Counted from the first letter of the stretch, positions 6,186 through 55,873 are shown. The stretch: DNA of 64,000 nucleotides from a bacterium (GCA_021372575.1 JAJFUE010000029.1:22646-86645), one strand, 5' to 3'. The notes: generated by a model not told the origin, from the sequence alone. Translations and numbers: made by a program.

Positions 6186-6192
6186 TTGATTA

Positions 6193-7302: not shown

Positions 7303-8744
<1,442 letters not shown>

Positions 8745-36164: not shown

Positions 36165-37331
36165 ATGGAAATCGTCCTGATACTGCTGCTGTTCACCAAC
36201 CTGGGAATCCTTGCTCTGGTCGTCTGGAACAGCCTGGCCTGGCCCAAAGCGGGAATATCCATCGAAAACCGGAACGAGACGGGGGAAACCTGCTCGATTC
36301 TGATTCCGGCGCGAAACGAGGAAAACAACATCGGCGCCTGTCTGGACGCGGCGATGGCCCAGGCGAGCCCCGTGCGCGAAATCATCGTCTGTGACGATCA
36401 TTCCGAAGACGCCACCGCCGCCCTCGCGCGCGGATATGCCCTGCGGGACTCACGCATCCGGCTGATCGAGGCGATGGAACTTCCCGAGGGCTGGTGCGGC
36501 AAGCCATTCGCCTGCGCCACGCTCGCCGCGGCCGCCCGATGCGACTGGCTTCTGTTTATCGACGCCGACACGCGTCTGGCGACCGGGGCCGCCGAGCGGA
36601 TGATGGACGAAGCCATCCGGAAAAAGCTCAGCTTGCTTTCCTGCTGGCCGGGCCTGGTTCTGGAGGGTTTCTGGGAAAAGACGTTGATGCCCATGCTGAA
36701 CTTCGTGGTCTTCACGCTTTTCCCGGCCCCCCTCTCGCTTCTGCGCCCCGATCCCTCGCTCGGCCTGGCCCATGGCGCCTGTATCCTGATCCGGCGAGCC
36801 GACTACGAAAAAAACGGCGGCCATCGCCTGGTGTCCGATCGATTATTCGAGGATACCGCGCTGGCTCGCGCCTGGCGCGCCGGCGGCCGGCGCAGCCTCT
36901 GCCTGGATGGCCAGGACCTCGTTCGCGTTCGGATGTATGATTCGCTGGATGGAATCTGGACCGGATTTCAGAAGAACTTTTTCCCCGCGTTCAGGAAAAC
37001 GCACGGCTTCTGGATGTTCATCCTGCTGCATATGGTCGTATTTTGGTTTCCATTTATTGCCTGTCTCCTGTCCGCCATCCTGGGTTGGGGGTTCCGGCTC
37101 GCCGCAGCAAGCGCCGCGTGCGTCCTGGCGATGCGAGCCGTCCAGGCCTGGCGTTTCCGCTATCCGGCCTGGTCCGTGTTGCTCCACCCACTTGCTGAAG
37201 GGATGCTGCTTGCGGTTGGACTCAGTTCCTGGTGGCGCTGCCGGAGCGGGCGTGGCGTAACCTGGAAAGGCCGGATCTATTGCCCATCCAGAGCCCCGGG
37301 GGGTATGAAGCGGAGTCCCATGCATGAATAA
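36165..37331 (+). CDS. Family 2 glycosyltransferase (carotenoid glycosyltransferase CruC/CrtX-like)
   Basis: Start MEIVLILLL at 36165 (ORF track begins at 36063). N-terminal TM helix, GT-A motifs ILIPARNEE, CDDHSED…, DAD. Confidence 0.6.
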   Translation: MEIVLILLLFTNLGILALVVWNSLAWPKAGISIENRNETGETCSILIPARNEENNIGACLDAAMAQASPVREIIVCDDHSEDATAALARGYALRDSRIRLIEAMELPEGWCGKPFACATLAAAARCDWLLFIDADTRLATGAAERMMDEAIRKKLSLLSCWPGLVLEGFWEKTLMPMLNFVVFTLFPAPLSLLRPDPSLGLAHGACILIRRADYEKNGGHRLVSDRLFEDTALARAWRAGGRRSLCLDGQDLVRVRMYDSLDGIWTGFQKNFFPAFRKTHGFWMFILLHMVVFWFPFIACLLSAILGWGFRLAAASAACVLAMRAVQAWRFRYPAWSVLLHPLAEGMLLAVGLSSWWRCRSGRGVTWKGRIYCPSRAPGGMKRSPMHE

Positions 37332-38796
37332 ACCCCACGCCGCTGTTATTGGTGGAGGCCTCGGCGGATTGGCCGCCGCGTTGCGCTTGGCCGTCCGCCA
37401 CTGGGATGTGACTGTCTTTGAGCAGGGAAACATGCTCGGCGGCAAAATGAATCGCTGGTCGCGGGACGGTTTTCAGTTCGATACCGGACCCTCGCTAATC
37501 ACCATGCCTTGGATTTTCTCGGAACTCTTCGCGGCCGCGGGCGAAGACTTGCGGGACCATCTCCAATTGCAGCTTGTCGACCCGCTCGCCAATTATATCT
37601 TTGATGATGGCGTTCGGTTTCAGGTTGCGGCGTCGCTGCCGAAGTGGCTTGCGACCCTGCGTCGGCTTGAGCCTCGCGGCGACCGCCATTTTCTCGAATT
37701 CATGCAGCATGGCTCGCGAATTTATGAGCTTTCCGCGCGCACCTTTTTCCGCCGCCCGCCCACCGAGCCCCCCGATCTGGCGGGACTGGCCGCGTTGCGC
37801 TTTTTCCCATTGCGTCGCGCCTGGGGCCGATACGACCGGGCCGTGGAGTCCTTCTTCAAGAGTCCCCACCTGCGCCAGTTGTATCAGCGTTTTTCCACCT
37901 ACGTCGGCTCCTCCCCCAGCCGCATTCCGGCCATGCTGCTCCTGATTCCCTACCTCGAACACGCTTTCGGCGGATGGTATGTTCCGGGCGGACTCTATCG
38001 TATCATCGAGAGCCTCACCGCCCTGGCGGAGCGGCGGGGAGTCAGCCTGCGCATGAATCAGCGCGTTGCGCGGATCGTTTCCCGCGCCGGCAAAGTCGTC
38101 GGCGTTGAACTGGGAGACGGCTCGTTTCACGCCTGTGACGTGGCGATCATGAACGGTGACGCCTCGATGGCGCAAGTTCTGCTCGGTGAGAAGAACGCCG
38201 CCCCGCTGCCCGAATCCCAACGCTCGCTCTCGGGCTTCGTGATGCTGCTGGGCATCAGGCGGCGGCTTGCGGACCTTGGGCATCACACGGTTTATTTTTC
38301 CGCGGATTATCGGCGGGAATTCGATGATCTTTTCACGCGCCGCCGCTTTCCCGCGGAACCGACGGTCTATGTCAGCATGCCCAGCCGCAGTGATCGATCG
38401 ATCGCGCCCGAAGACGGCGAAGCGCTGTTTATCATGGCCAACGCTCCGGCCAACGATTGCGACGCATGGGACGATCATGCTGTCGGCGAGGCCCGCCATC
38501 GCATTTTTGAACGGTTGCAAAAAGGCGGTTTCCCCGAGATTGAGCGGGATATCGCCGTATCGAACATCTGGACACCCCGACGCATGGCGGCCGCATATGA
38601 CATGCCCGGCGGCGCGATTTACGGCTCGCACTCCCACGGCTGGCGCCACGCCTTTCTGCGTCCGCCCAATCAAGATCGGCGCCATCGCGGCCTTTACTAC
38701 GTGGGGGGGAGCGTTCATCCCGGCGGCGGAACGCCGACCGTTCTGATGTCGGCCCGCATCGTCAGCGAGATGATTTGCAAAAATGAAGCCCAGTAA
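37324..38796 (+). CDS. Phytoene desaturase-family enzyme, CrtD-like (carotenoid 3,4-desaturase) candidate
   Basis: 490 aa. AAVIGGGLGGLAAALRL…FEQGNMLGGK. Second CrtI-family paralog in the cluster. Confidence 0.65.
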   Translation: MNKPHAAVIGGGLGGLAAALRLAVRHWDVTVFEQGNMLGGKMNRWSRDGFQFDTGPSLITMPWIFSELFAAAGEDLRDHLQLQLVDPLANYIFDDGVRFQVAASLPKWLATLRRLEPRGDRHFLEFMQHGSRIYELSARTFFRRPPTEPPDLAGLAALRFFPLRRAWGRYDRAVESFFKSPHLRQLYQRFSTYVGSSPSRIPAMLLLIPYLEHAFGGWYVPGGLYRIIESLTALAERRGVSLRMNQRVARIVSRAGKVVGVELGDGSFHACDVAIMNGDASMAQVLLGEKNAAPLPESQRSLSGFVMLLGIRRRLADLGHHTVYFSADYRREFDDLFTRRRFPAEPTVYVSMPSRSDRSIAPEDGEALFIMANAPANDCDAWDDHAVGEARHRIFERLQKGGFPEIERDIAVSNIWTPRRMAAAYDMPGGAIYGSHSHGWRHAFLRPPNQDRRHRGLYYVGGSVHPGGGTPTVLMSARIVSEMICKNEAQ

Positions 38797-39514
38797 GTTA
38801 CTGCTTTCAGTGCTGATCGCGGCCTACGCCGTTCTATGGGTGGGCGGCGTGATCAGTTATGTTTTTCGAGGGACTCCACCCTCCGATAGCCGATGGACCG
38901 CGCCGCTCTTTCTGGCCCTAGCCGCCGCGGTTGCGCTTGTCCTGACAGCGCCATCATTTCGCCTTTCCCTGCTAAATGTGGGATTGATCGGACTGGCCGC
39001 CGAACTTGCCGGGGTGCGCTGGGGGTATCCGTTTGGCCGCTACACATACACCGGAACGCTGTCTCCCCAAATCATGGGCGTGCCGGTCGTCATGGGTTGC
39101 GCCTGGTTGTTGCTGTTTGCCTATGTCAAGACGATGCTTCATTTATGCGGGATGAACCGATCGTGGCAGCCGATTTACGGCGCGGTCTGGATGCTCGCGC
39201 TGGACCAGCTGATCGATCCGCTCGCCTCCGGCCCTCTCGGCTATTGGATCTGGCTGGATCAGGGGTGGTACTACGGCATTGCCCCGATGAATTTCGCCGG
39301 CTGGTTTCTAGTCGGTCTTGTCTTGTTTGTGATTTTTCGCGGCCCGTGGCCGTATCGCTCCGGAATCGCCAGGGTGGGTCTTAGCATCATTATATTTTTC
39401 TCCTTGATCGCCTTGGCCCGCGGCCTTTACGGCCCCCTGCTGGTTGGCGTTGCCTTGTGCCTGCTGCATGGATACCTGCGGCGGCGTTGGCGGAGTCGGA
39501 CGAGCGGACTTTAA
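38783..39514 (+). CDS. Integral membrane carotenoid biosynthesis protein (CruF / carotenoid 1,2-hydratase-like family), tentative
   Basis: 243 aa, 6 to 7 TM helices, Trp/Tyr-rich GYWIWLDQGWYYG segment. Last gene of the carotenoid cluster. Confidence 0.45.
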   Translation: MKPSKLLLSVLIAAYAVLWVGGVISYVFRGTPPSDSRWTAPLFLALAAAVALVLTAPSFRLSLLNVGLIGLAAELAGVRWGYPFGRYTYTGTLSPQIMGVPVVMGCAWLLLFAYVKTMLHLCGMNRSWQPIYGAVWMLALDQLIDPLASGPLGYWIWLDQGWYYGIAPMNFAGWFLVGLVLFVIFRGPWPYRSGIARVGLSIIIFFSLIALARGLYGPLLVGVALCLLHGYLRRRWRSRTSGL

Positions 39515-40247: not shown

Positions 40248-40295
40248 TGGCCTTTCACGCCGGAAACAGGGGTTCGAATCCCCTTGGCGCTACCA
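40248..40295 (+). repeat. 48-bp direct repeat of the tRNA-Glu 3' half (attR-like); carries anticodon TTC instead of CTC
   Basis: TGGCCTTTCACGCCGGAAACAGGGGTTCGAATCCCCTTGGCGCTACCA matches 17243..17290 at 47 of 48 positions. The upstream sequence does not continue the tRNA 5' half. Confidence 0.7.
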
Positions 40296-40721
40296 AAATG
40301 AAACTAAAGCACTTACGGCCCGGAGCTCACCCTCCGGGCCATCTTAACGTACACCGGCAGCGTACACCGGATGGGGGCGAGCCGCCTAGCCCATTCGATG
40401 CGTCTTTATCTAACTCCCACGGGATATCGAGGTTGATCGTCGGTATCTGAGTATGAGCTGGTAGCCGAAACGAGCGCCAGCTTTATGAATGGAAAAGCTT
40501 CTCGCATGGTTATGCGCCCATACCTACCATAATGAAAAAATCGAAGGAAAATATTAAAGTTATTCAGAATACAGATAAAGTTTATAAAGTTTCTTGACAA
40601 CAGCGAGGATTTCATGCTTTCTGTTGCCAGCTGTAGCTGTAATTACCGTCAAAAATGAGTCGAACGGATCAGCGGTGAGGTCGTTTTTACCCGCCGATGC
40701 CCCAATTTGGAGGTAAACGAG

Positions 40722-41789
40722 ATGAAAATGCCGTTCTTGCGTTTGTCGCAACTCCTATCTCTGGCTGTAACAATTACATTCTTGTTATTGGCTTGCAACA
40801 AACCAAGTGACACAACGAATCAAAATAGCAATGCGACGCAAACAGCAAGCGGCGGCAATAGCAAAAACGAACTCACCAAAGTCAGTGTTCGTTTCCCAAT
40901 TCCGATCGTCGAATCCGGCCAGACCACGTTTTATGTGGCGCAGGACAAGGGCTTTTATGCCGCCGAAGGATTGGACGTCAGTTTCGGCATGGGGTCGCGT
41001 GAGCTGAATCCCATTAAGACAGTTGCGACAGGCCAGGACATGTTCGCCATCGTCGGCGGACCGGATACATTATTGGTCGCACGTTCCAAAGGCCAGCCGG
41101 TGAAAGCGATTGCGGTCCTCCACCGAAATTCGAATTTTCCGTGCCTGCTGACGCTAAAAAAATCCGGCATCACAAAAGTACAGCAATTGGAAGGGAAAAA
41201 GGTCGGATTCAACTATGGGCACATCTCGACGGACGTGTTGCGCAATCTATTCCGAAAGGCCAATGTCAAGGTCACCGAAGTCGATAGTGGATTCGACTAT
41301 AATCAGTTGATCACTGGGGGAGTGGACGCGGAATGGGCGTTCACGGTAACGGCTGGTCTGGACCTTCCCGCCAAGGGTGTCGAGGTCAACGTGATTAGTC
41401 CCGCCGATTACGGGATCGTCACGAACGGCTATACAATCTTCGCCACCGACAAGACGATCGCCGAAAAACCAGACATCGTTCTGAAATTCCTGCGCGCCAG
41501 CCTGCGGGGAGTCAATTACGCCGTCGAGCACCCGGAAGAGGCGAACAAGAGTCTCATTAAGCGTGATCCCAAACTTGATGAGGCACTCAACCTCAAACGG
41601 CAGCTGGCTTACAACACGGTGACCAGCAGGGCCGATCCGTATCCGGCAGGCTATATGGACAAGGAGATGTTCCAGACCACCTACGACCGCCTTGTCCAGG
41701 AAAAAGTCATCGAAAAGCCGTTTAACGTCACTGACGCGTATACGACGAGATTTCTTGAAGAAATCTATCGCCGGCCCTTTACGAAATGA
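40722..41789 (+). CDS. ABC transporter substrate-binding lipoprotein, NMT1/THI5-like (sulfonate/nitrate/bicarbonate family)
   Basis: Start MKMPFLRL with a GGAGG RBS. Lipobox LLAC. SsuA/TauA-like fold. Confidence 0.7.
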   Translation: MKMPFLRLSQLLSLAVTITFLLLACNKPSDTTNQNSNATQTASGGNSKNELTKVSVRFPIPIVESGQTTFYVAQDKGFYAAEGLDVSFGMGSRELNPIKTVATGQDMFAIVGGPDTLLVARSKGQPVKAIAVLHRNSNFPCLLTLKKSGITKVQQLEGKKVGFNYGHISTDVLRNLFRKANVKVTEVDSGFDYNQLITGGVDAEWAFTVTAGLDLPAKGVEVNVISPADYGIVTNGYTIFATDKTIAEKPDIVLKFLRASLRGVNYAVEHPEEANKSLIKRDPKLDEALNLKRQLAYNTVTSRADPYPAGYMDKEMFQTTYDRLVQEKVIEKPFNVTDAYTTRFLEEIYRRPFTK

Positions 41790-41796
41790 TTGAATC

Positions 41797-42546
41797 ATGA
41801 CCGCTCATGAACAGATCGTTGAAGCGGTAAACCTGTCGAAGACTTATCCGGACGGCAAGGTTCAGGCCCTGAAGGATATTTCCTTTAGTGTGGCCAAAGG
41901 CGAATTTATTTCGATTATCGGTCCGAGCGGGTGCGGAAAGAGCACCCTGATCAAGATTCTCGGCGACATTACCGAACCCAGCATGGGAACCGTACGCGTC
42001 AACGGATTGAACGCCCGTCAGGCCCGCCTGAAAGGCATGTTCAGCTTCGTGTTTCAGAATCCCGTCCTGCTGCCGTGGCGGCGTGTGATCGAGAATGTCT
42101 CGCTGCCGCTCGAGATCCTGCACAACGGCACGCGCGATCCCAATAGCCTGCTCCGCGTGTTCGGCCTCGAGGGATTTGAGAACGCGTATCCGGCACAACT
42201 GTCCGGCGGAATGAAACAACGTGTTGCGCTGGCGCGCGCCCTGACGTTCAACCCGAAAATTCTGCTGATGGACGAACCGTTCGGCGCGGTCGACGAACTC
42301 AATCGCGCCGCATTGGACCTGGACCTCGCCCGTATATGGCAGGAAATCGGCGTAACCGTTTTTTTCGTCACCCACAGCATCAGTGAGGCCGTGTTTCTGG
42401 CCGACCGCGTGTTCGTGCTTTCGGCCCGACCCGCTCGTTTAAAGACCGTCTTGAACATAAGTTTCCCCCGGCCAAGGAACAAGGAATTGCAGGAAACGGA
42501 ACCTTTTCAGGAGGTCGTACGGTGTCTGCGCAAGGAATTGGAATAA
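41797..42546 (+). CDS. ABC transporter ATP-binding protein (NitT/TauT family)
   Basis: Walker [10 protein letters not shown], signature [15 protein letters not shown], Walker [12 protein letters not shown]. Confidence 0.85.
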
Positions 42547-43283
42547 GACCGGTCGTCGTTCCGGCGGTTGCGCTGGTCGTCTTGCTGGGTGTTTGGCAGG
42601 CGGCGCATCGCATATTCCATTTCAACAGCATCGTCCTGCCGGCGCCGACCGAAATCGTGGCCGCTTTCGTGAAAAACGCCGGAAGCATCCTGACCGAAAC
42701 GGGATTGACGATGTTCGAGTCTGTGATGGGATTCATCATCGGATGCGGCGCAGCTTACCTCCTCGCCATCGCCTTTGTCCACTCGCGCACCGTGCAGCAG
42801 GCTGTCTATCCATATGCCGTCGCGTTGAAATCCACGCCTCTGATCGCGATCGCCCCGCTCCTGGTGTTATGGTTCGGCAACGGCATCGCGTCCAAAATTG
42901 TCATGTCGGCGCTGGTCGCATTCTTCCCAGTGCTGGTCAATTCCGTAAGCGGCTTGACGGCTGTGGACGCCGAGGCGCTGGATCTAATGAAATCCTACTC
43001 AGCGACGCGACGGCAGGTCCTCCTCAAGATCCGCATTCCGAATTCGCTGAGCTATCTCTTTCCCGCGTTGAAGATCGCCAGTTCACTTGCCGTCGTCGGA
43101 GCGGTGATTGGCGAATTCACCGGCTCCACGCGAGGCATTGGGCATTTAATCAATACATCATCTTATTATCTCGACACAGCCCTGGTTTTCTCGGCAATTG
43201 GGAGTATTTCACTCGGTGGGATTCTTTTCTTCGGCTTTGTCGCATGGTTTGAAAAACGGATCGTATTTTGGCAGAAAGCATGA
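42522..43283 (+). CDS. ABC transporter permease (NitT/TauT family)
   Basis: 253 aa, 6 TM helices, EAA-like loop (…[26 protein letters not shown]…). Confidence 0.8.
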
Positions 43284-43318: not shown

Positions 43319-44434
43319 ATGAACGCAGATATTATTTCACTAAGTGAAATGCTTGATGTTCATGCGGACCGCTGTTTTTCAGAATTACCAGTTGACGGCG
43401 TTAACGGTGTCTTTGGAAAGGAGCAATTGCAGTTTTGTTTCGGGGCCGGTATTTGTCGTGGAACCTACATGCGGCATCGCTCGCAACCGGTAAAGGGCTC
43501 TTGCTTAGTCATCGGAAAATCCAGGTCAGATTTCCCATCTTCTCAGCCATTCCAACCAATTACGCTGCACGAAGAACCTGTTGTTTGGATTGCGAAACAG
43601 TTTGCACAGCCGTTCTGCGAAGATGTAAGACTTAGCGAGCATCTATGGCCAGATTTGGCTGACTTGGAATACGCTCTCTCTGGCGACCACCATTGTGCCC
43701 CACACAAGATTATACCACCGGAGTTGATTAATAAGTACGTGACCGTCCTTGCACCAGACTGTTTTGAGTTTACAAATCTTGCCTACACGGAGAATCATGC
43801 AATACATTGGTGGACCAGACTCCGCAATATCGAGGAACAAAGAAAGAAAGAAAGGGTCAAGGTGGTTGGGATTTATGGCGAAGGAACAAGCGTGGTGCTC
43901 GATGATCTTGTATCGATCCCTTTTATGACGCATGCGAATGGAAATCCCCCCATTATGCAAGGCCTTTTCAATCTAAATAATCCACATGAGTCTGTATTTC
44001 AAGTTCCTCAAGTTGAAAAACTGGTGTTTGATAAGGCGTTCACACTGGTTGAAAACCTCCATCAATGGCTTGCTACATTTTCCGTTGACTTGTCGACCCG
44101 AAGGCCGGACGAGGTGGAGTTGTGCACTGTTCGAAAAGCGGACGAACACGAACTGCTGGGAGCAATAGAGCAATTGGCTATTATTTTGGCGAACACTGAC
44201 ACCGAGGAATCGCTTGCAAAAGCTAGAGAGATGAAGGTGAAGTCTTCGCAGCCACAGCTCACAAAACTACGGAATCAAGTTGTGAACAGACTCACTGCCG
44301 AAAAGGAATCAATAGACTGCCTGGTCAAGGAGTTGGGTTTAGGCCATAAACGAACTCGTGCAATGGTCATGGGTTTTGCCGGGATTATGGTAGTGATGGC
44401 AATCGAAACAATATTGGTAATGATGCACAAATAG
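43319..44434 (+). CDS. Hypothetical protein
   Basis: 371 aa. The C-terminal roughly 25 aa are hydrophobic (TM anchor). No recognisable motif. Confidence 0.4.
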   Translation: MNADIISLSEMLDVHADRCFSELPVDGVNGVFGKEQLQFCFGAGICRGTYMRHRSQPVKGSCLVIGKSRSDFPSSQPFQPITLHEEPVVWIAKQFAQPFCEDVRLSEHLWPDLADLEYALSGDHHCAPHKIIPPELINKYVTVLAPDCFEFTNLAYTENHAIHWWTRLRNIEEQRKKERVKVVGIYGEGTSVVLDDLVSIPFMTHANGNPPIMQGLFNLNNPHESVFQVPQVEKLVFDKAFTLVENLHQWLATFSVDLSTRRPDEVELCTVRKADEHELLGAIEQLAIILANTDTEESLAKAREMKVKSSQPQLTKLRNQVVNRLTAEKESIDCLVKELGLGHKRTRAMVMGFAGIMVVMAIETILVMMHK

Positions 44435-44449
44435 GAGGAGGGAAACGAA

Positions 44450-44818
44450 ATGAGCACTGCAATTTCTGATCTATTAAGAATTGGCTTGGAAAAGTTGTCT
44501 GACGAAATCTGGGTGTTTGAAGTGATTTGTCTCTTCGTTTTCTTGACAGTTCTTTATCTATTGCGTGCTGAGGAGAAGATCCGGCCAACGGCAGGCCAAG
44601 TTTTTACAATTAGCAGCCGTTACTATTGGAAAGACCGGCAGAGCAGAAGATTAACATATTTAGTTGGTTGGATTTGCACTTTTATAATTGCCTTAGGAGT
44701 AAGTATTTTCTTAATTAGTGTTAACCCTGCGCCGAAGCCGTCGAAAGGGGCTGTGTCTCATGGAGATGTCACAATCATCCCCAGTGTAACGGGTTCAGGA
44801 ACAAGCAAGATCGAGTAA
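44450..44818 (+). CDS. Hypothetical small membrane protein (2 TM)
   Basis: 122 aa. RBS GGAGGAGGG upstream. Confidence 0.35.
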   Translation: MSTAISDLLRIGLEKLSDEIWVFEVICLFVFLTVLYLLRAEEKIRPTAGQVFTISSRYYWKDRQSRRLTYLVGWICTFIIALGVSIFLISVNPAPKPSKGAVSHGDVTIIPSVTGSGTSKIE

Positions 44819-44862
44819 TTAACCCTTGATTCTTCACGCCAAAGGCAAATTGAGAGCGAAAC

Positions 44863-46698
44863 ATGGAGAATAAGATTATGAGCGATTGTAGATATGGAAC
44901 AAATGGATGGATTCTCGGCATCAACTCCGCGTATCACGAGCCTGCCGCATGTTTGATTCGCGACGGCGAGATAGTCGCCGCTGCGGAAGAGGAACGATTC
45001 AACCGGATCCGGCATGGGAAACGCGCGGATTTGCTGAATCCGCATGAGATTCCCGTGAACTCGATACGATATTGCATGGATGTCACCGGGATTTCGGCGA
45101 AGGATCTGGACGCCATCGGGTTTTCGTTTCTCCCGGACAAACGGTTGCAAGCCAACGCCGCACTGGACCCGGACCCCGAACCGGGTTGCGCCGGCACACG
45201 CGACGGCGAGGAACGGTTCCATCAGTTGCTCCTGACTGTCCCCCGGCGCCTGGGCGATTTTCTGGGCGAGGACGTCACGTCACGATTCCATTGGATCGAA
45301 CATCACCTGTGCCACGCCGCCAGCGCGTATTTCGTCTCCCCGTTTGATGAGGCGGCGATCCTGAGCGTCGATGGCATCGGAGAAACGACGAGCGCGTGGC
45401 TCGGCGTGGGACGCGGCAACCACATTTTCCCACTGAAGGAAATCGCCTATCCGAATTCGCTCGGCTTTCTCTGGACCAAGGCATCGCGCTTTCTCGGATT
45501 CGGCGAATACGGGCAGTGGAAAGTGATGGGGCTGGCGGGGTTTGGCGATCCCGACCGCTACTACGGCGCGTTCCGTGAGTTTGTATCTTATGACGAGGAC
45601 GGAAACTTCTCCGTCAACAATGGCGTGTTGCAATTCCGCGCGAATCGATACGACGGATACGAACAACTCTTCGGTCCGCACCGTCTTCCCGGCGAGGACA
45701 TCGAGGAACGGCATCGGGACATGGCGGCGGCGCTTCAAAAGATCACAAACGAGGTTCAATTGGCCCTCGCACGCTATCAGCATCGCGCGACGGGACTCAA
45801 ACGCCTCTGCCAGGCGGGCGGCGTTGCGCTGAACTGCATCGCCAACCGCGTCATCCTCGAGGAAGGGCCGTTCGATGAGGTCTTCATCCAACCGGCGGCA
45901 AACGATGCGGGAACGGCGATGGGCGCGTGCTTTTATCTCTGGAATCACGAGATGAATCGGCCCGAACGCTCGCAACTTTCGCATGTTTATCTGGGACCGG
46001 AGTTCGATGCGGACGAAACCGCCGCAAAGTTGTTCCCACACGCTCAAAAATCGAACGATATCGCCAGGGATGTTGCGGCGCTGCTGGCGCACGGCGAGAT
46101 CGTTGCATGGTTCCAGGGACGAATGGAATGGGGACCGCGCGCGCTGGGCAATCGCAGCATTTTGGCAGATCCGCGTCGGGCTGATATGGTCCACACCCTG
46201 AACGAGAAGGTCAAACACCGCGAGTTTTTCCGCCCGTTCGCGGCGAGCGTGCTGTCGGAAAAGAGTAGCGAATGGTTCGAGTTCGGCAAGCATGCGCACG
46301 GCGACGCATTCATGCTTTATGCACGCAGGATTCGGCCGGATAAAACGGGCCGAATTCCGGCGGTGACGCACATCGACGGCACAAGCCGGATTCAAGTTGT
46401 GGAAGCTGCGGCGAATCCATCCTTTCATCGCCTGATCGCGGAATTTAATGAACTCACCGGCGTTCCGCTCCTGTTGAACACCTCGCTCAACGACCGTGAA
46501 CCTATCATTTGCACGCCGCGGAATGCCGCGGAAACATGCCACCGGGCCGGGATTCGATACCTGGCAATCGGGGATTGCCTTGTGGATTTCCAGCAAGAGG
46601 GAGTCATGACAGAAAACAGGTGGACGGCAAGTTCTCTCGACAACTTCGAAACCGAGCTCTTGAGCCAACCGCTTGAACTGACGTTCCGGAGCCGGTGA
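44863..46698 (+). CDS. Carbamoyltransferase, NodU/CmcH/TobZ family (Kae1-like N-domain + YrdC-like C-domain)
   Basis: 611 aa. N-terminal GINSAYHEPAACLIRDGEIVAAAEEERFNR (ASKHA/Kae1-like). Characteristic family length. Confidence 0.75.
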   Translation: MENKIMSDCRYGTNGWILGINSAYHEPAACLIRDGEIVAAAEEERFNRIRHGKRADLLNPHEIPVNSIRYCMDVTGISAKDLDAIGFSFLPDKRLQANAALDPDPEPGCAGTRDGEERFHQLLLTVPRRLGDFLGEDVTSRFHWIEHHLCHAASAYFVSPFDEAAILSVDGIGETTSAWLGVGRGNHIFPLKEIAYPNSLGFLWTKASRFLGFGEYGQWKVMGLAGFGDPDRYYGAFREFVSYDEDGNFSVNNGVLQFRANRYDGYEQLFGPHRLPGEDIEERHRDMAAALQKITNEVQLALARYQHRATGLKRLCQAGGVALNCIANRVILEEGPFDEVFIQPAANDAGTAMGACFYLWNHEMNRPERSQLSHVYLGPEFDADETAAKLFPHAQKSNDIARDVAALLAHGEIVAWFQGRMEWGPRALGNRSILADPRRADMVHTLNEKVKHREFFRPFAASVLSEKSSEWFEFGKHAHGDAFMLYARRIRPDKTGRIPAVTHIDGTSRIQVVEAAANPSFHRLIAEFNELTGVPLLLNTSLNDREPIICTPRNAAETCHRAGIRYLAIGDCLVDFQQEGVMTENRWTASSLDNFETELLSQPLELTFRSR

Positions 46699-47954
46699 CG
46701 GTGGACGGCACAATAACTCCAGCCGCGGGAAAGCATGTCCTCGGCCGTGGCAATCCCAAGGAATTGGGCGCCGATCGAGTCGGAATGTATCCGTATTCCG
46801 GGAAGGTTTGGCCGCCGACGGATTTTGTCGCTGAATACGCGACCGTGCTGAGCGGCCACGAGCAAGCCTTACTACGCCGCCATGCCGTCGCCTTGGCCGA
46901 CGCCCCGGCGGTAATGTCCCTTCCCGCTGAACTCACTCATTGTCTGGCGCGTTCGCCGGAATCGGAATCGGCGATCCCGGCGATGGTCATCAAACGCAGC
47001 GGAGGTCGATCCGCCTTTTGGCCCGAGCGGAAACTGAAATTCAAAGGCTGTCGTCCGGTGCTGGACGGCGCAACGTATCCGCTCGAGGTTCTGGCCCCCG
47101 GTTCACATTGCATAGAACACACCGCCATCCCGTTCGGGACGCTTGGCCCCGAAGGAGTGATGCGTGAAGTACTGGCATGGGCATTCTGCCGCGAACACGG
47201 TTTGCCGGTCCACGCGATACCAGTGCTCGTCTTCGAGTATATCGTGGATGGCCGTTCGGTGGGCTGCTGCCTGATCTCGGAAACTTGCGGCGAGGAGCGT
47301 ATCGAGGCACACATTGAATATCCCCGGTGCACAGTGCAGGACCTCATTGAAGCCAAGCGCAAAGGAACCGCATCGGTCGGAGGGGTGCCTATTGGGTCGG
47401 AATTACAACTGCGCGACTTGAATCTGTGGCAATATGTGGAAGACAAAAGCCGTCTGCTTTGCGATATGCATTTCCAAGGTGGGTTTCGAGGAATCCTGAA
47501 TAGCAATATCGGCAATGACGTACTGCAGCGCGTGTCGAATGAATATTTTAAATTATGCCTTTGCGATTTTGATTCTTTCCGCATCGTGCGGATTCCCGAT
47601 CGGCCATGCCAGGATTTTCTGAACGATTTCGTCCTGCGCACCATGATCGAAGTCATCAAGGGTAGTTTATCCATCTGCGATTACGTGGTAATTCCGGAAG
47701 CTGCAAATGTATCGGAAACCGCGGAGAAGCTGGGGACGGCGTACTTCGCGAAAAGCAGCCTATGGCACGCTTACTCGCGTCGATTCGGAAACGCGGCAAA
47801 AGCTGGGGGTTGGGATATGAAATGTGTTTATGAAGCGTTTGTTCGTGCGAAACGAACCGAAGCCGCCGCCGAAGTGTTGGCGTCGTGCGTCATTAACAGC
47901 CACTATCTCCGCCGAATGAGCGGCGATCGAAACGTATTCTATCCGCATAACTAG
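46695..47954 (+). CDS. Hypothetical protein with protein-kinase-like/phosphotransferase-like motifs (tentative)
   Basis: GTG start overlapping the upstream stop (GTGA). A catalytic-loop-like FRGILNSNIGND and a DFD (DFG-like) motif. Confidence 0.35.
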   Translation: MTVDGTITPAAGKHVLGRGNPKELGADRVGMYPYSGKVWPPTDFVAEYATVLSGHEQALLRRHAVALADAPAVMSLPAELTHCLARSPESESAIPAMVIKRSGGRSAFWPERKLKFKGCRPVLDGATYPLEVLAPGSHCIEHTAIPFGTLGPEGVMREVLAWAFCREHGLPVHAIPVLVFEYIVDGRSVGCCLISETCGEERIEAHIEYPRCTVQDLIEAKRKGTASVGGVPIGSELQLRDLNLWQYVEDKSRLLCDMHFQGGFRGILNSNIGNDVLQRVSNEYFKLCLCDFDSFRIVRIPDRPCQDFLNDFVLRTMIEVIKGSLSICDYVVIPEAANVSETAEKLGTAYFAKSSLWHAYSRRFGNAAKAGGWDMKCVYEAFVRAKRTEAAAEVLASCVINSHYLRRMSGDRNVFYPHN

Positions 47955-47978
47955 GGCTGGTCTCGGGCTGCATGTCAT

Positions 47979-48938
47979 ATGAGAACGACGCTTCCCAGAA
48001 CGTCTGAATTCGTATTCCCGGTCCGCGTGGATCAGAACGGATTCCGGCCCGTTTATAAACTCGGCAATGAAGGGGGTTATTGTTCATTTGGCTGCGAGTT
48101 TTGCGGCGTCGGCAAATCCCGGCGTGTTACATCCGCGGAGAACATCTCGCTGTTTGACGAGTTGCACGCCAAATATTCGGTCGATATTGCCGGCCCCTAT
48201 CATCCAGCCATTTTTAATCGTGGCAACGTGACCGATCCGAAAGCGTTTTCGCCGGCGACGCTCGATCATATCCTCGGCGTTTTCGAGAAAGACAAACGTG
48301 TCACGTATCTCTCGCTGAATTCGCGCGAAGCCACCGCGACGGCTGAGGTATTGGACCGTTTGGCTGAACGGCGTCTGCCTTTTCCGATTCATTTCATTTT
48401 CGGGCAGGAAAGTTTCAGCGAAACGGCCCCGCAGATTCTAGGCAAGAACAATCGAGGCGAGTTGCATCGTTTTATCGAAAAACTGGAACCGTATAATTCC
48501 GCCACCGGACTCAAACACGAAAAAAGATATGTCTTCGGGTTGGATGTAAACCTGATTTACCTGCCTGAGTTGTATCTCAAAGCCGACGAACCGAGGATTG
48601 GTAACGAGTCCATGATAGCCACGGGACTGGCCAACGAGCTTCGAACGTTGCTCGCTCATTGCAGTCCATTGGTGCCCGTCGAGGTGAACATCCATCCATA
48701 TTACGAAGTCGAGGCGTTGACTCACAAAAAGGCGGATCTGTTTCTCTTGATGCGGATTCTCCCGCAGCTCAGACAAATCGTCGAGGAACATAATGCGAGG
48801 TCGGGAATGCCGAGGACGCATGTGTTCATCGGAGTTGTGTTTCTCGATTTTTACCAATCCAACTTGAACACAATTCAATCCAAAAAATTGGTATGGCTTC
48901 AAACCGCAATCAACGATTTCAATCGAACCGGCGTCTGA
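47979..48938 (+). CDS. Radical SAM domain protein
   Basis: 319 aa. CxxxCxxC cluster motif GGYCSFGCEFCGV near the N-terminus. Confidence 0.6.
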   Translation: MRTTLPRTSEFVFPVRVDQNGFRPVYKLGNEGGYCSFGCEFCGVGKSRRVTSAENISLFDELHAKYSVDIAGPYHPAIFNRGNVTDPKAFSPATLDHILGVFEKDKRVTYLSLNSREATATAEVLDRLAERRLPFPIHFIFGQESFSETAPQILGKNNRGELHRFIEKLEPYNSATGLKHEKRYVFGLDVNLIYLPELYLKADEPRIGNESMIATGLANELRTLLAHCSPLVPVEVNIHPYYEVEALTHKKADLFLLMRILPQLRQIVEEHNARSGMPRTHVFIGVVFLDFYQSNLNTIQSKKLVWLQTAINDFNRTGV

Positions 48939-48963
48939 ACAAGCAAACGTTTCGTGGAGAGGA

Positions 48964-49206
48964 GTGAAAATAAAAATGAATTGTCCTGACTGTGGCCATG
49001 ATTCGGACAAGGGCAACTGTGAGCTGTGCGGGGGAACTGGGATCATAGATTGTTTCGGCATGAATCTTCTTATTGGCAGCGGAATGATTTCGGTCGATAA
49101 ATCATGTCCAAGATGTGGAGGGAGTGGCAAATGTCAGACATGTGGCGGATCGGGTGTGGTATGCACTGATTGTCATACGAATGCGAACTCTGAACAAGAG
49201 AGCTAA
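48964..49206 (+). CDS. Small Cys-rich protein with three CxxCGG(T/S)G repeats (DnaJ-type zinc-finger-like)
   Basis: 80 aa. CPDCGHDSDKGNCELCGGTG…CPRCGGSGKCQTCGGSG…CTDCH. Confidence 0.45.
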   Translation: MKIKMNCPDCGHDSDKGNCELCGGTGIIDCFGMNLLIGSGMISVDKSCPRCGGSGKCQTCGGSGVVCTDCHTNANSEQES

Positions 49207-49281
49207 TGCTTAATGAGAATATCAGGGACGGAATACGGAATATCAAGGAGGCGCACTTGATTATGATTTATACCATATAGC

Positions 49282-50154
49282 CTATATCCCCTCGCCCATG
49301 ATGTTTTCTGGATCGTTCGGATCTGGTTCTCCCACGATTTCCGTGAGATCCATTGAAAGATCGGGGATTTTGGCTTCGACGTAGATGGCTGTCGTGGATA
49401 TCTGTGAATGGCCCAGGGCTTCCATAAGGGTGAACACGTCACCATTCGCGCGGGTATTGGCGTGGGTTGCATACGTGTGGCGGAAGCAGTGTGCAGTGAT
49501 TTTGCGGCCTAATTCGTCAACCAGTTTGAGCCCGGCCCTTTTGGCGATCAGGCGAAAGAGACGGAACAGGTTCGTTCTGTATCGAAACACATACGGCCAT
49601 CTTGCTGGCGTCTTTTTACATTCCTCCACAAGCAGGTTCATCAACATCTGGGAGACCGGCACACTGCGGATTTTGCCCGTTTTCCCCGGCAAAAGTTTGG
49701 ATGGGCGGATCAGGACTCGTTGTTCCTTGACCAGGACCTCACTCTTAAGCAGCGGCTTGTGAGTAGATTTTTTGGAAAATAGAACTTCGGCCGGACGGGC
49801 GCCGGTTGCAAGCATGGTGAGGAACATGGTTTTGTAACGCCCCTCATCTCCCTGCGGATACTCGTCGCAGGCCTTAAAGAATGCCTGTAATTCTTCGGTT
49901 GTAAACGGCCGTTGTTTCGTTTTGATGCCGGGTTTGGGATCGGGCTTAATGACGAGGTAACCGCATTTTTTGAGGGCGCGGATCACATAAATCAGCTCTT
50001 TATCCACCGTGGCTTTTGCGCGGATTTTGAGACGCGCCCGCTGGAAGTTCTCAAGCAGAGCGGTCGTGACTTCCGTAATCGGGATGTCCCTGCCGACCCA
50101 TCTGGCGAAGTTGTTCAGTGCAAAATCGATTCGCTCGGATTGCGAGACAGACAC
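49282..50154 (-). CDS. Tyrosine-type integrase, N-terminally shorter paralog of the island-1 integrase
   Basis: 290 aa. HCFRHTYATH… and LGHSQISTTAIYVEA catalytic motifs. Aligns to Int1 from residue about 75 onward, so it is possibly truncated. Confidence 0.75.
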   Translation of the reverse strand: MSVSQSERIDFALNNFARWVGRDIPITEVTTALLENFQRARLKIRAKATVDKELIYVIRALKKCGYLVIKPDPKPGIKTKQRPFTTEELQAFFKACDEYPQGDEGRYKTMFLTMLATGARPAEVLFSKKSTHKPLLKSEVLVKEQRVLIRPSKLLPGKTGKIRSVPVSQMLMNLLVEECKKTPARWPYVFRYRTNLFRLFRLIAKRAGLKLVDELGRKITAHCFRHTYATHANTRANGDVFTLMEALGHSQISTTAIYVEAKIPDLSMDLTEIVGEPDPNDPENIMGEGI

Positions 50155-50405: not shown

Positions 50406-51587
<1,182 letters not shown>

Positions 51588-51680
51588 TTGCTCAAGCCGG
51601 AACGGCATGTCGGATACAATATGAGCAAACCCAAGACCCCTTGAATCGACTTGTAAAATTCGAACCGCCGGAGGATTCCA

Positions 51681-52142
51681 TTGAATCCCATCGCGACCAT
51701 CATTTCGCGGCAGCAGTTCTTCGCCGGCATGGACGATGCGCTGATCGAGCGGATCGCCGGGTGCGCGGCTGAGAAGCAATTCGACCAGGACGAAGTCATT
51801 TTCCGCGAAGGCGAGTCGGCCGACCGCTTCTTCGTGATCCTGGAAGGCCAGATCGCGGTCAAGATCCACGGGGTGCAGCGTGGAGACATCATGATCCAGA
51901 CGCTCGATGCGGGGGATGTGCTCGGCTGGTCGTGGCTCGTGCCGCCGTACCAGAAGCAGTTCTCGGCGCAGGCCACGCTGCCGTCGCGCGCGCTCGTGTT
52001 CGACGGCGCGATTCTGCGCCGCATGTGCGAGGGCGACCACGATCTCGGCTACGACATGCTCAAGCGTTTCATCCGCGTCATCGCGGCCAGGCTCCAGGCG
52101 ACCCGGCTGCAGCTGATCGACGTCTATGCGAGCGAAAAATAG
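51681..52142 (+). CDS. Stand-alone cyclic-nucleotide-binding (CAP effector) domain protein
   Basis: 153 aa. cNMP-binding beta-roll signature (…FREGESADRFFVILEGQIAVKI…). No HTH or other output domain. Confidence 0.6.
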   Translation: MNPIATIISRQQFFAGMDDALIERIAGCAAEKQFDQDEVIFREGESADRFFVILEGQIAVKIHGVQRGDIMIQTLDAGDVLGWSWLVPPYQKQFSAQATLPSRALVFDGAILRRMCEGDHDLGYDMLKRFIRVIAARLQATRLQLIDVYASEK

Positions 52143-52151
52143 GGGCATCCT

Positions 52152-52991
52152 ATGGCCAGCAACGCCGTTGCCGATCCGTTGGTTTCGCGGCCGTGGCGCG
52201 TCAAGCGCAGGATTCGCGAGGCCCACGACACGTTCACGCTCGAAATCGAATCCCGCGCCGGCGAGTCGTTCCCGTTCACGGCGGGCCAGTTCAACATGCT
52301 GCACGTGCACGGCGTCGGCGAGGTCCCGATTTCGATCAGCAGCAACCCGGCCGAGACGGCGCTGATCCGGCACACGACGCGCGAGGTCGGCCCCGTCACG
52401 AAGGCGATGCGCAAGCTCGACGCCGGCGACACGATCGGCGTGCGCGGACCGATGGGGGTCGGCTGGCCGATCGAGGCCATCGAGGGGCGCGACGTGGTCC
52501 TGGTGGCGGGCGGCATCGGCCTGGCGCCGCTGCGCCCCGCGCTGTACCGGCTCATCGCCGAGCGCGAGAAATACGGCAAGATCGTGCTCCTCTACGGCAC
52601 GCGCTCGCCGCAGGACATCCTGTTCAAGCACGAGCTTGAGCACTGGCGCGCGCAGTTCGACCTGGAAATCCACGTCACCGTCGATCGCGCGATCGGCACG
52701 TGGCGCGGCCACGTCGGGGTCGTGACGACGCTGATCGCGCGCGCGCCGTTCGACCCGCTCGAGACCGTCGCGCTGGTGTGCGGCCCGGAGATCATGATGC
52801 GCTACACGCTGATGGAACTGGGGCGGCGCGGCGTCCGCGAAAGCGACATGTACCTGTCGATGGAGCGCAACATGAAGTGCGGCATCGGCACGTGCGGCCA
52901 CTGCCAGATGGGCCCGTTCTTCGTCTGCCGCGACGGCCCGGTCTTCAACTACGCGCAAATCAAATGGCTGCTCGGAAAGGCGGAGGTGTGA
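52152..52991 (+). CDS. hydG: FAD/NAD(P)-binding + [2Fe-2S] oxidoreductase subunit, hydrogenase gamma-like (HydG/AsrB-like)
   Basis: 279 aa. Flavin-binding region, NAD(P) fold [13 protein letters not shown]-terminal [10 protein letters not shown] cluster motif. Confidence 0.75.
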
Positions 52992-52994
52992 CCG

Positions 52995-53792
52995 ATGGGG
53001 CGCAAGCATCCCAAACCCAAGCTGGCGGTGTGGAAGTTCGCCTCGTGCGACGGGTGCCAGCTCAGCATCCTCGACTGCGAGGACGAGCTGCTCGACATCG
53101 CGGGAGCCGTCGAGATCGCGTATTTCCCGGAGGCCACGCGCGCGGTCGTCAAGGGCCCCTACGACATCTCGCTCGTCGAGGGCTCGGTGACGACGCCGCA
53201 CGACGCCGAGCGCATCCACAAGATCCGCCGGGCCTCGACGGTTCTGATCACCATCGGCGCATGCGCAACGACCGGGGGCATCCAGGCCCTGCGCAACTTC
53301 ACCGAGGTCGCTGACTACGTCCGCGCCGTGTATCCGACGCCGCAATACATCGAGACGCTCAGCAAATCGACGCCGATCACCGACCACGTGTTCGTCGATT
53401 TCGAGTTGCGCGGATGCCCGATCAACAAACTTCTGCTGCTGGAGCTGATCAGCGCGTACCTCAACGGGCGCAAGCCGGTCGTTCCCGAATACGCCCTGTG
53501 CCTGGAATGCAAGCGCCTCGGCAACACGTGCGTGATGGTGGCCCATGGCGCGCCGTGCATGGGGCCGGTCACGCAGGCCGGGTGCGGCGCACTCTGCCCG
53601 TCGTACAACCGGCCTTGCTACGGCTGCTTCGGCCCCAAGCGCACGCCCAACACGGGGTCGCTCGCCGAGTGGTGGCGCCATCACCGGGACATGAGCGAAG
53701 AGGAACTGGTGCGCGCGTTCCGCGGCTTCAATGCCTGGTCCGAGGCGTTCCGCCGCGCCAGCGAAGCGCACGAGCAAACCACCATGAAATGA
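52995..53792 (+). CDS. hydD: NiFe hydrogenase small subunit, group 3 (delta)
   Basis: 265 aa. N-terminal [12 protein letters not shown] proximal-cluster motif. Additional Cys clusters in the C-terminal half. Confidence 0.8.
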
Positions 53793-53796
53793 TCGG

Positions 53797-55118
<1,322 letters not shown>

Positions 55119-55122
<4 letters not shown>

Positions 55123-55616
55123 GTCCTGTTTCATCCAACTCGCGCCCCCTGGTCCTCGGCATCGGCAATCGGCTTCGCGGCGATGACGGCGCGGGCGGGA
55201 TGGTTGCCGCGCGTCTGCGCGCGGCCATGCCGACCGATGCCGTCGATTGCCGAACGCTCGACGGCGAAGTCGCCTCGATCATCGACGCGTGGGCGGGACG
55301 CCGCCTTGCGATCGTCATCGACTGCGCGGTCTCGGGCGCGCCGCCGGGCTCGATCCGGCGATTCGACGCAACCGCTGCGCCCATTCCCGCGCTCTTCGCA
55401 AAGACGTCCACGCACGGCATCGGCCTGCCGGAGGCGATCGAACTGGCGCGCGCGCTCGGCCTGATGCCGGGGCGCCTCATCGTCTATGCCATCGAGGGGA
55501 AGCGGTTCGGGATGGATGGGCGGGTCTCGCCCGAAATCGAACAGGCGCTCATCAAATTGACCGGAATGATCGAAGAAGATGTGGAGAGCAACAACAGGAG
55601 GGGCGGCGATGCATGA
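55119..55616 (+). CDS. Hydrogenase maturation endopeptidase (HycI/HyaD family)
   Basis: Start overlaps the hydA stop (ATGA). [20 protein letters not shown] and HGIGL motifs. Confidence 0.8.
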
Positions 55617-55872
55617 GTCGTCGATGATGACCGGCCTGATGCGGCAGATCGAGTCGATCGCGCGCGTGCAGGATGCCACGCGCGTCGTCGGCGTGACGCT
55701 ACGCATCGGGGTGATGACCAACATTTCGCCGGACCATTTGCGCGAGCATTTCGCCATGGCCGCGCGCGGAACGATCGCCGAGGACGCCGACCTCAGCATC
55801 GTCGAGGAAGAAAATCCGGCGAGCCCGTTCGCAAACCAGATCCTGCTTGAAGCCATCGACGTCGCAGGCTGA
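55609..55872 (+). CDS. hypA: HypA-like nickel-insertion protein, N-terminal (MHE nickel-site) domain only; lacks the Cys4 zinc finger
   Basis: 88 aa, AGGAGG RBS 7 nt upstream. Aligns with the HypA N-terminus (MHE…RV.GV.L.IG…). No cysteine anywhere in the protein. Confidence 0.5.
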   Translation: MHESSMMTGLMRQIESIARVQDATRVVGVTLRIGVMTNISPDHLREHFAMAARGTIAEDADLSIVEEENPASPFANQILLEAIDVAG

Positions 55873-55873
55873 C

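Follow-up and report, generated by a model that had tools for sequence, protein, structure and literature searches.

The O-carbamoyltransferases TobZ, GdmN, NovN and NodU perform solo late tailoring steps in antibiotic or Nod-factor clusters. RaSEA, a radical S-adenosylmethionine (SAM) enzyme, turns the ArcS-made preQ0-lysine adduct into the amidine archaeosine, in complex with ArcS (PMC11298593). Relatives of both kinds were encountered side by side in a 64,000-nucleotide window of bacterial DNA (GCA_021372575.1 JAJFUE010000029.1:22646-86645; positions are counted from its first nucleotide). The region flagged in a first-pass annotation, made from the sequence alone, was 43319-50154. Within it lies a module of three genes, which encode a NodU/TobZ-type carbamoyltransferase of 611 amino acids (aa), a 419-aa protein with a protein-kinase-like fold and a 319-aa radical SAM enzyme. 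The window carbamoyltransferase resembles TobZ, GdmN, NovN and NodU in its two-domain architecture, in full-length similarity (E about 1e-97) and in the HxxxH and DG(I/R)GE motifs. Unlike them, enzymes of its type always have a kinase-fold partner and usually a RaSEA-like radical SAM partner, sometimes in one fused protein.

Genomic contexts were taken from a protein look-up (loci L001-L016), a scan of 185,579 species genomes and one metagenome collection, and synteny was counted over 25 non-redundant loci. The carbamoyltransferase gene and a gene of the 419-aa family shared an operon in 25 of 25 loci, and a radical SAM homologue was present in 15. Synteny in other genomes, which the first-pass annotation had set beforehand as a refuting test, held for three of the six flagged genes and failed for the other three; only the carbamoyltransferase, the 419-aa protein and the radical SAM enzyme form a conserved unit. 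Gene order varied. In L011 and L021 the 419-aa gene came first, followed by the radical SAM gene and the carbamoyltransferase gene, and in the archaeal loci L006 and L025 the order was radical SAM, carbamoyltransferase, 419-aa. The varied order therefore points to selection on co-occurrence rather than to shared ancestry of one arrangement.

The module was rare and widely scattered. The species genomes gave 13 hits, and among 5.8 billion clustered proteins 51 relatives of the radical SAM enzyme and 43 of the 419-aa protein were found, all from metagenomes or metagenome-assembled genomes; the two families occurred on common contigs. Hosts included Phycisphaerae, Acidobacteriota, Nitrospirota, Krumholzibacteriia, Bacteroidales, SAR324, Holophagales, Methanosarcinales and a nanoarchaeon, so that Planctomycetota, Acidobacteriota, Nitrospirota, Bacteroidota, SAR324 and archaea were represented. 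A scan of 2.9 million viral contigs detected no homologues, and neither did tblastn of 50,697 phage records and 72,556 plasmids with the 419-aa, radical SAM, 371-aa and Cys-rich proteins of the region. The region is regarded as a rare, horizontally spread metabolic operon with the carbamoyltransferase and the 419-aa enzyme as its invariant core.

Known superfamilies supply the enzymes, but neither the 419-aa family nor this radical SAM clade has been characterised, and no counterpart of the assembly has been described; literature searches on the gene combination found no paper describing it. Two of the three core proteins belong to families absent from Pfam and NCBIfam, with no sequence match in the PDB and about 45-115 cluster representatives among billions. 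The strict pairing, together with natural fusions across bacteria and archaea, points to self-contained and undescribed chemistry. As a tentative proposal, held at somewhat less than even confidence, the three enzymes may between them carbamoylate an imported nitrogen-rich small molecule, activate it with ATP and cleave a C-N bond (ureido/guanidino chemistry).

The carbamoyltransferase was matched by Carbam_trans_N (PF02543; E 1e-53, 182.9 bits) and Carbam_trans_C (PF16861; E 6e-65, 218.4 bits), well over the Pfam cut-offs of 24 and 27 bits, and by its sequence is unambiguously of the NodU/TobZ type, as first annotated. Its N-terminal domain is Kae1/TsaD-like and its C-terminal domain YrdC/Sua5-like. 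GdmN was matched over the full length (E 4e-97), and NovN and TobZ were matched also. In the alignment to GdmN (7vzu), HHLCHAAS corresponded to HHEAHAYS, DGIGE to DGRGE and NDAG to HDAG; the metal-site motifs HxxxH and DG(I/R)GE are thus kept, and of NDAG/HDAG the DAG core. By analogy the enzyme is expected to use carbamoyl-AMP chemistry. In a neighbour-joining tree, one broad clade held carbamoyltransferases of both settings intermixed, some with a 419-aa partner and some whose only partner is the radical SAM enzyme; the tree is crude and nothing beyond that intermixing was drawn from it. The TGA stop of the gene overlaps the GTG start of the 419-aa open reading frame (ORF) in the GTGA that had been described as translational coupling. 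The overlap is present but hinges on the choice of start, because the NCBI annotation begins the ORF at the next GTG, two codons later (417 aa); the genes abut either way.

The 419-aa protein had no match in Pfam, NCBIfam, PADLOC, PHROG or PDB sequences, even with a 42-sequence profile, and none of the 42 family members matched a kinase, APH or IucA/IucC model in Pfam. A profile search to widen the family gained essentially nothing (one 224-aa fragment). PDB sequence searches with this protein and with the radical SAM enzyme, as single sequences and as profiles, returned nothing significant. An AlphaFold2 model built from the family alignment (pLDDT 90, pTM 0.90) had the bilobal kinase fold, and a protein-kinase-like fold closest to NRPS-independent siderophore (NIS) synthetases (NRPS, nonribosomal peptide synthetase), SelO and Bud32/PRPK is confidently predicted from it. 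Foldseek returned WaaP, PRPK/Bud32 and AcsD with weak scores (E about 5e-4, TM 0.25-0.47), and the Kae1-Bud32 fusion 3en9 was among the structural matches. K117 (the putative beta3 Lys, in strand 114-117) and E158 (the putative alphaC Glu, in helix 152-168) are invariant, and N274/D275 and D291 of the DFD motif (C-D291-F-D) follow in the order expected of a kinase ATP site with its Mg-binding Asn and DFG Asp, placed by position without superposition. The kinase-like character first noted from the catalytic loop and DFD motif was borne out by the fold.

An invariant loop, R-G-I-L-N-S-N-I-G-N-D, places Asn or Ser at the position of the catalytic-base Asp, and because of this replacement the protein is unlikely to be a classical hydroxyl kinase. 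We infer from the model that it is an active ATP enzyme of another kind. It is predicted to use ATP, possibly as an adenylating enzyme; its best structural matches are AMP transferases (NIS synthetases, SelO) or the ATPase partner of Kae1 (Bud32). As with the KEOPS pair Kae1-Bud32 of t6A synthesis, a protein with a Kae1-like domain was always encoded beside a small atypical kinase-fold protein, and Bud32 and PRPK are top structural matches of the latter. The 419-aa protein differs from Bud32 in lacking sequence similarity to it, in being about twice as large and in having extra N- and C-terminal parts. The Kae1-like domain here belongs to a carbamoyltransferase and not to a t6A enzyme, and no other KEOPS subunits were present. 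Compared with the NIS synthetases IucA/IucC, SbnC and AcsD, it has no IucA_IucC Pfam match and is about 150 residues shorter.

The 319-aa protein carries a CX3CX2C motif, CSFGCEFC (C35, C39 and C42), which was invariant in 46 homologues and upholds its original naming as a radical SAM enzyme. It has only four cysteines (35, 39, 42 and 228), three of them conserved, and hence no auxiliary cluster; the Pfam scan gave no SPASM match. Biotin-like ureido-ring or sulfur-insertion chemistry was considered and dropped for want of auxiliary-cluster cysteines. PF04055 scored 14.4 bits on the window protein (E 0.042), below the gathering cut-off of 29.5 bits, and matched 40 of the 46 family members at E up to 1 (best 3e-8). 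The model (pLDDT 91.6) had a partial or full TIM-barrel radical SAM fold. Its structural matches were queuine lyase (16.1), BioB (15.1), NosL (14.5), HydG and HydE (13.9) and viperin (13.5), and it resembled small-molecule enzymes most (queuine lyase, BioB, NosL, HydG, ThiH).

Searched in full by HMMER with the family profile, 1.84 billion cluster representatives yielded only 115 proteins. TIGR01210, the RaSEA model, was matched by 55 of the 57 distant full-length hits, and hhalign of the family against 20 TIGR01210-matching proteins gave a probability of 99.5% (E 1.6e-22, 291 columns). The window protein itself had no NCBIfam match to TIGR01210 (cut-off 212 bits) at E<=1, and no TGT- or ArcS-type Pfam family was seen in the gene tables of the 16 loci L001-L016. 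By sequence it is a relative of RaSEA and stands outside the RaSEA family itself, because TIGR01210 was not reached and ArcS/TGT genes were not found nearby. Motifs in common with RaSEA are NxG(S/N), SLxSRE, G(Q/F)E(S/T), LGK and a C-terminal FN. Both in ArcS-RaSEA and in the window module, the radical SAM enzyme has a tightly linked partner that builds, or in the window module would build, a C-N adduct first; RaSEA then takes off the lysine carrier and leaves the amidine. The partners differ, being a carbamoyltransferase and a kinase-fold enzyme in the window module, which has no ArcS, ArcTGT or preQ0 genes and occurs mostly in bacteria. The substrate of the window module is probably not tRNA.

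The conserved unit begins upstream of the flagged range, with a NitT/TauT-type ATP-binding cassette (ABC) importer at 40707-43283 that consists of an NMT1/ThiY-like binding protein, an ATPase and a permease. The importer was found in 11 of 25 loci and, although it lies outside the flagged range, its orthologues indicate that it belongs to the conserved operon. Binding-protein orthologues were 68-76% identical and adjoined the module in the closest four loci (L010, L004, L019, L021). A permease orthologue in L010 was up to 83% identical, and a conserved ATPase gene adjoined the module in 6-7 of the 13 loci compared first. The nearest solved relatives of the binding protein were 4nmy and the pyrimidine-binding ThiY protein 3ix1. 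NCBIfam matches of the ATPase to SaoA, ntrCD, SsuB and TauB were all under the cut-offs. Salvage of thiamine pyrimidine was dropped as an explanation, the ThiY-like binding protein being its sole support.

In three of the distant radical SAM hits (P0136, P0150, P0157) one polypeptide held an entire carbamoyltransferase and, after it, a RaSEA-like radical SAM domain, and in about 16 metagenome loci carbamoyltransferase and RaSEA-like genes were adjacent or fused, without the 419-aa family. This related two-gene module was seen in L030-L047, L060 and L061 (for example L046, 6875-10669), with fused proteins of about 870-910 aa. In several two-gene loci a gene resembling protein arginine N-methyltransferases (PRMT) lay directly upstream of the module. 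A second methyltransferase family recurred in two-gene loci and in some loci with the carbamoyltransferase only, and was directly upstream in L060. Where the radical SAM gene was missing from the three-gene module, the next gene after the 419-aa gene encoded an arginase-like protein (L024, L027), an amidohydrolase (L014, L022) or an NRPS-type adenylation domain (L029). In L006, which also has the radical SAM gene, an arginase-like domain fused to an MTS-type N-methyltransferase took that place. Other RaSEA-like fusions (P0131, P0161, P0201) joined the domain to an MTS-type methyltransferase, an N6 DNA methylase domain or a YcaO domain.

The proposed mechanism takes its basis from a trait common to arginases, PRMTs, cyclic amidohydrolases, YcaO and RaSEA: each works on a C-N bond of a ureido, guanidino or amidine group. 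The steps set out here for the window operon are derived from the observed synteny, fusions, folds and family relationships, and relatives' data exist for the fourth step only. In the first step the importer would take up a nitrogen-rich small molecule, for example an amino compound or N-heterocycle, that carries an amine or a hydroxyl. In the second, the carbamoyltransferase would form carbamoyl-AMP from carbamoyl phosphate and ATP and transfer the carbamoyl group to give a ureido or carbamate group, after the manner of TobZ, GdmN and NovN. The kinase-fold enzyme would then activate that group, or a neighbouring carboxylate, with ATP, probably by adenylation as in NIS synthetases and SelO, and the activated group would be coupled to an amine. 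In the fourth step the radical SAM enzyme would cleave a C-N bond and release the carrier, as RaSEA does, to leave a guanidino- or amidine-type group. In lineages without the radical SAM gene, the arginase-like protein or the amidohydrolase could perform a hydrolytic C-N cleavage instead.

A narrower form of the proposal is an arginine-independent route to guanidino or amidine groups, in which an amine is carbamoylated, the ureido oxygen is adenylated and aminated, and the carrier is removed by radical C-N cleavage; we rate this form as unlikely. Its proposed order is that of ornithine carbamoyltransferase, argininosuccinate synthetase and argininosuccinate lyase (carbamoylate, activate with ATP and add an amine, cleave C-N), but no window enzyme is homologous to these, and the likeness is drawn from the partner families, with arginase-like genes as recurrent neighbours. 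If the broader proposal is true, RaSEA-type radical C-N cleavage extends beyond tRNA, a kinase-fold clade between Bud32 and the NIS synthetases gains a function, and there is perhaps a new way to build or remodel ureido/guanidino groups. The guanidino route, if true, would give the RaSEA-like radical SAM clade its first bacterial function.

Several observations weigh against modification of an imported small molecule by the three enzymes. The importer is missing from half of the loci. The two-gene carbamoyltransferase/radical SAM modules do without a kinase-fold protein, so the third step is not needed as a link. An arginase acting after guanidine formation would reverse the pathway, and the arginase variants may follow another logic. 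The catalytic residues of the 419-aa protein were assigned from model and sequence alignment, without superposition. Mobile or defence genes are frequent neighbours of the module (L001, L010, L011, L012, L014). Finally, tRNA modification too supplies nearest characterised relatives for every core enzyme: Kae1 and Sua5, Bud32, and RaSEA.

The last point leads to modification of an RNA or DNA base, in which the carbamoyltransferase and the kinase-fold protein, as a Kae1-Bud32-like pair, would attach a carbamoyl-derived group to a nucleobase; trimming by the RaSEA-like enzyme would follow, as in archaeosine synthesis, and the importer would bring the base precursor. The structural match to the 3en9 fusion suits this explanation, as do the action of RaSEA, the nearest radical SAM family, on tRNA, the similarity of the binding protein to pyrimidine-binding ThiY, and the fusions with, or neighbouring genes for, MTS/RsmC/PrmC-type methyltransferases and N6 DNA methylase. 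Against it, no tRNA enzyme came anywhere near as close to the carbamoyltransferase as the small-molecule enzymes GdmN, NovN and TobZ (E 1e-97), and no TGT, ArcS, PUA or 7-deazaguanine synthesis gene was seen in L001-L016. A presence in 13 of 185,579 species genomes is ill-suited to a translation-related function, and nucleic acids as substrates do not go with partners such as arginase and amidohydrolase. Base modification is considered distinctly improbable.

Some loci have further metabolic genes. Divergent beside the operon in L001 (81-2976) are a methyltransferase gene and genes for a pyridoxal phosphate (PLP)-dependent enzyme and an ornithine-cyclodeaminase-like protein; the latter two form an SbnA/SbnB-like pair of the kind known from diaminopropionate synthesis. 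The archaeal variant L008 (9823-16105) contains a carbamoyltransferase gene, a 58-aa ORF, a member of the 419-aa family and a distant RaSEA-like gene (E 1.7e-5 to the family profile), with further genes for a SPASM radical SAM protein, an unknown 394-aa protein and a LuxC-type reductase. A secreted specialised metabolite could be the product, such as a metallophore or a non-proteinogenic amino acid, for instance a ureido/guanidino derivative of diaminopropionate or ornithine, with the ABC system re-importing the product or a precursor. We give this a low probability. The PALP and ornithine cyclodeaminase-like pair with the methyltransferase in L001, the NRPS-type adenylation domain after the 419-aa gene in L029, the NIS-like fold of the 419-aa protein, the antibiotic-tailoring role of the closest characterised carbamoyltransferases and the patchy distribution with seemingly horizontal transfer all speak for it. 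Yet most loci hold the three enzymes only, without scaffold-building genes or an exporter and, unlike those of NIS synthetases, without siderophore genes. The importer is of the sulfonate/nitrate/ThiY type rather than the siderophore type, and the accessory genes differ between loci.

Mobile and defence genes near the module were Vsr, a DNA methylase and HerA in L001, and in L010 those for type IIG restriction-modification, SNF2/PLD and a resolvase. L011 had a transposase and a group II intron there, L012 had integrase fragments, and L014 had TIR_2 inside the operon. In the last locus the TIR_2 gene, a 444-aa gene and a 94-aa ORF (5146-7909) stand between the transporter and the carbamoyltransferase, and the 444-aa family recurs in L022 and L027. 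These neighbours, with the sparse and patchy distribution, speak for viperin-type anti-phage defence, which the first-pass annotation had offered as one of two readings. A modified nucleotide would then be the product of the radical SAM enzyme, and the kinase-like protein and the carbamoyltransferase would be accessories. Prokaryotic viperins (pVip) are likewise radical SAM enzymes about 300 aa long; the N-terminal CX3CX2C motif and the patchy distribution are shared too. None of the seven proteins submitted had a PADLOC match at E<=1, pVip models included, and neither by structure nor by sequence was viperin nearest to the radical SAM enzyme, whose nearest sequence relatives among the 1.84 billion cluster representatives were RaSEA/TIGR01210-like. 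The partner genes differ from those of pVip, the kinase-fold partner is no P-loop nucleotide kinase, an ABC importer lies in the same operon, and the viral contigs, phage records and plasmids held no homologues. The viperin reading is rated highly improbable, with some weight left to it by the mobile and defence neighbours.

The features of the region are collected in Table 1. Six co-directional genes of lower GC content that end at an integrase were present as first placed.

Table 1. Features in and beside the flagged region (window positions, nucleotides)
Feature	Position	Strand	Evidence
50-nt copy of tRNA-Glu 3' end, one mismatch	40248..40298	+	alignment; sub-threshold Rfam tRNA match
ABC importer substrate-binding lipoprotein, NMT1/THI5/ThiY-like	40707..41789	+	PF09084 E 6e-50
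ABC transporter ATPase, nitrate/sulfonate/taurine group	41797..42546	+	PF00005
ABC transporter permease, 25-nt overlap with ATPase gene	42522..43283	+	PF00528
Orphan 371-aa ORF, C-terminal membrane helix	43319..44434	+	no family match
Orphan 122-aa ORF, two predicted membrane helices	44450..44818	+	hydropathy scan; no family match
Core gene 1, NodU/CmcH/TobZ-type carbamoyltransferase, 611 aa	44863..46698	+	Pfam E 1e-53, 6e-65
Core gene 2, 419-aa new family, protein-kinase-like fold, predicted ATP-using enzyme	46695..47954	+	
Core gene 3, 319-aa divergent radical SAM enzyme, remote RaSEA (TIGR01210) homologue	47979..48938	+	
80-aa Cys-rich ORF (76 aa from ATG at 48976), DnaJ-type zinc finger-like	48964..49206	+	
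Tyrosine recombinase, apparently N-terminally truncated	49282..50154	-	PF00589 E 9e-17, PHROG integrase

GC content per cassette gene was 0.42-0.58 against 0.62-0.69 in host-like neighbours, and GC at third codon positions (GC3) was 0.42-0.70 against 0.71-0.87 in the flanking host-like neighbours. The depression was uneven. The conserved genes (three core and three transporter genes) had GC3 values of 0.59-0.70 and the three non-conserved ORFs 0.42-0.47 (0.47 for the 371-aa ORF, 0.42 for the 122-aa ORF and 0.43 for the Cys-rich ORF). GC3 of the conserved genes below that of the flanks would agree with horizontal acquisition. Scans for promoters and terminators found sites no more often than in shuffled sequence, and an Rfam scan upstream of the binding-protein gene found no riboswitch or other family, the tRNA fragment only.

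The 371-aa ORF had no match in Pfam, NCBIfam, PADLOC, PHROG or the PDB, and the 122-aa ORF none in the first four; both were singleton clusters. Neither these two nor the Cys-rich ORF had a homologue in any related locus fetched. In the closest relatives (L004, L011, L019-L021) the slot after the permease is occupied by another membrane-anchored family. Its member in L004 (5530-6858) carries the motifs NLEDATRR, WYVNF and GCxxFLVG, which are conserved also in L011, L019, L020 and L021. The 371-aa ORF was unrelated by hhalign to the x442 and x444 families that hold the same slot elsewhere (probability 0.1%). It is probably a later insertion, and the 122-aa ORF was probably inserted together with it.

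The 80-aa ORF has the three CxxCGGxG repeats originally reported (CELCGGTG, CPRCGGSG, CQTCGGSG) and two more CxxC motifs, five in all. It matched PF00684 at E 0.0055, short of the cut-off, and tblastn of the phage and plasmid collections found no homologue in phages either. It is apparently unannotated in the public record, where accession numbers pass directly from the radical SAM gene to the integrase. It is a putative gene, not conserved with the module. No precursor-peptide candidate was found across the family; similar short ORFs were alternative-frame shadows of large genes except in L011 and L021, where one weakly matching pair lies upstream of the 419-aa gene.

These results bear on a modification of peptide or protein side chains, as in peptides that are made by ribosomes and modified after translation (RiPPs), in which Lys or Orn would be carbamoylated and converted, the arginase-like proteins would be peptide arginases and the PRMT-like proteins would methylate arginine. 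Peptide arginases and PRMTs have arginine in peptides or proteins as their target. PRMT-like genes directly upstream of the related two-gene module, the extra SPASM radical SAM gene with a 58-aa ORF in L008, the existence of a radical SAM::YcaO fusion and the Cys-rich mini-ORF in the window would all fit. Against them, no small ORF is conserved across the loci, bar the weak L011/L021 match, and the Cys-rich ORF is unique to the window and of different composition. The radical SAM enzyme has no auxiliary-cluster cysteines, a general Pfam scan found no domain of the peptide-recognition RRE type in the core proteins, and the importer better suits a small-molecule substrate. Peptide modification is thought very unlikely. 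The first-pass annotation had proposed small-molecule or peptide tailoring; the small-molecule part fits best, and a RiPP built on the Cys-rich ORF, which is without counterparts, is unsupported. The 371-aa, 122-aa and Cys-rich ORFs and the integrase are placed outside the proposed small-molecule pathway.

In PADLOC and PHROG together, the integrase was the one cassette protein with a match. It was 43% identical to another integrase of the window (17376-18470, minus strand, 364 aa), in an alignment that starts only at residue 96 of the latter, so that about 95 N-terminal residues are missing relative to this paralogue. No integrase homologue lay beside the module in other loci; the only match was to the integrase fragments about 8 kb downstream in L012 (27% identity). 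No meaningful direct or inverted repeat spanning 39.9-50.5 kb was found around the cassette, only short chance-like matches. The original description of the cassette as integrase-associated is thus unsupported, and the integrase is a neighbour and probably a remnant. The combination of a radical SAM enzyme, a kinase and a small Cys-rich protein beside an integrase can mislead annotation; synteny in distant genomes was the informative signal here.

The 364-aa integrase gene follows tRNA-Glu(CTC) at 17215-17290. An exact 27-mer repeat links 17264-17290 to 40269-40295 (0 expected by chance), and the 50-nt repeat of the tRNA 3' end around the second copy, the only significant repeat found, lies 23 kb from tRNA-Glu(CTC), with TTC at the anticodon position. 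The stretch 17.3-40.3 kb, about 23 kb long and with its right end just left of the cassette, looks like a separate integrated element. The repeat at its end is the right-hand direct repeat of this neighbouring element and marks the left edge of the low-GC block, outside the module. The cassette looks horizontally acquired, at an island-prone tRNA locus. Inside the element, a core of very low GC (0.40) was seen at 19-23 kb.

Just left of the tRNA fragment, 37324-39514 encodes a CrtD-like desaturase and a CruF-like hydratase (carotenoid genes) at host-like GC. Immediately right of the integrase, translations of 50406-58144 resemble a [NiFe]-hydrogenase operon, with a HypF-like maturation carbamoyltransferase at 55847-58144, both judged by eye. 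A link of the module to these genes through cyanide-ligand chemistry was considered and dropped, since the adjacency is absent from every other locus, and the proximity of hydrogenase and HypF genes to the cassette carbamoyltransferase is treated as coincidence. Elsewhere in the window, 11711-11765 on the minus strand matched the Rfam family Acido-Lenti-1, a small RNA that gives a hint of the host lineage, with 39.7 bits against a gathering score of 37.

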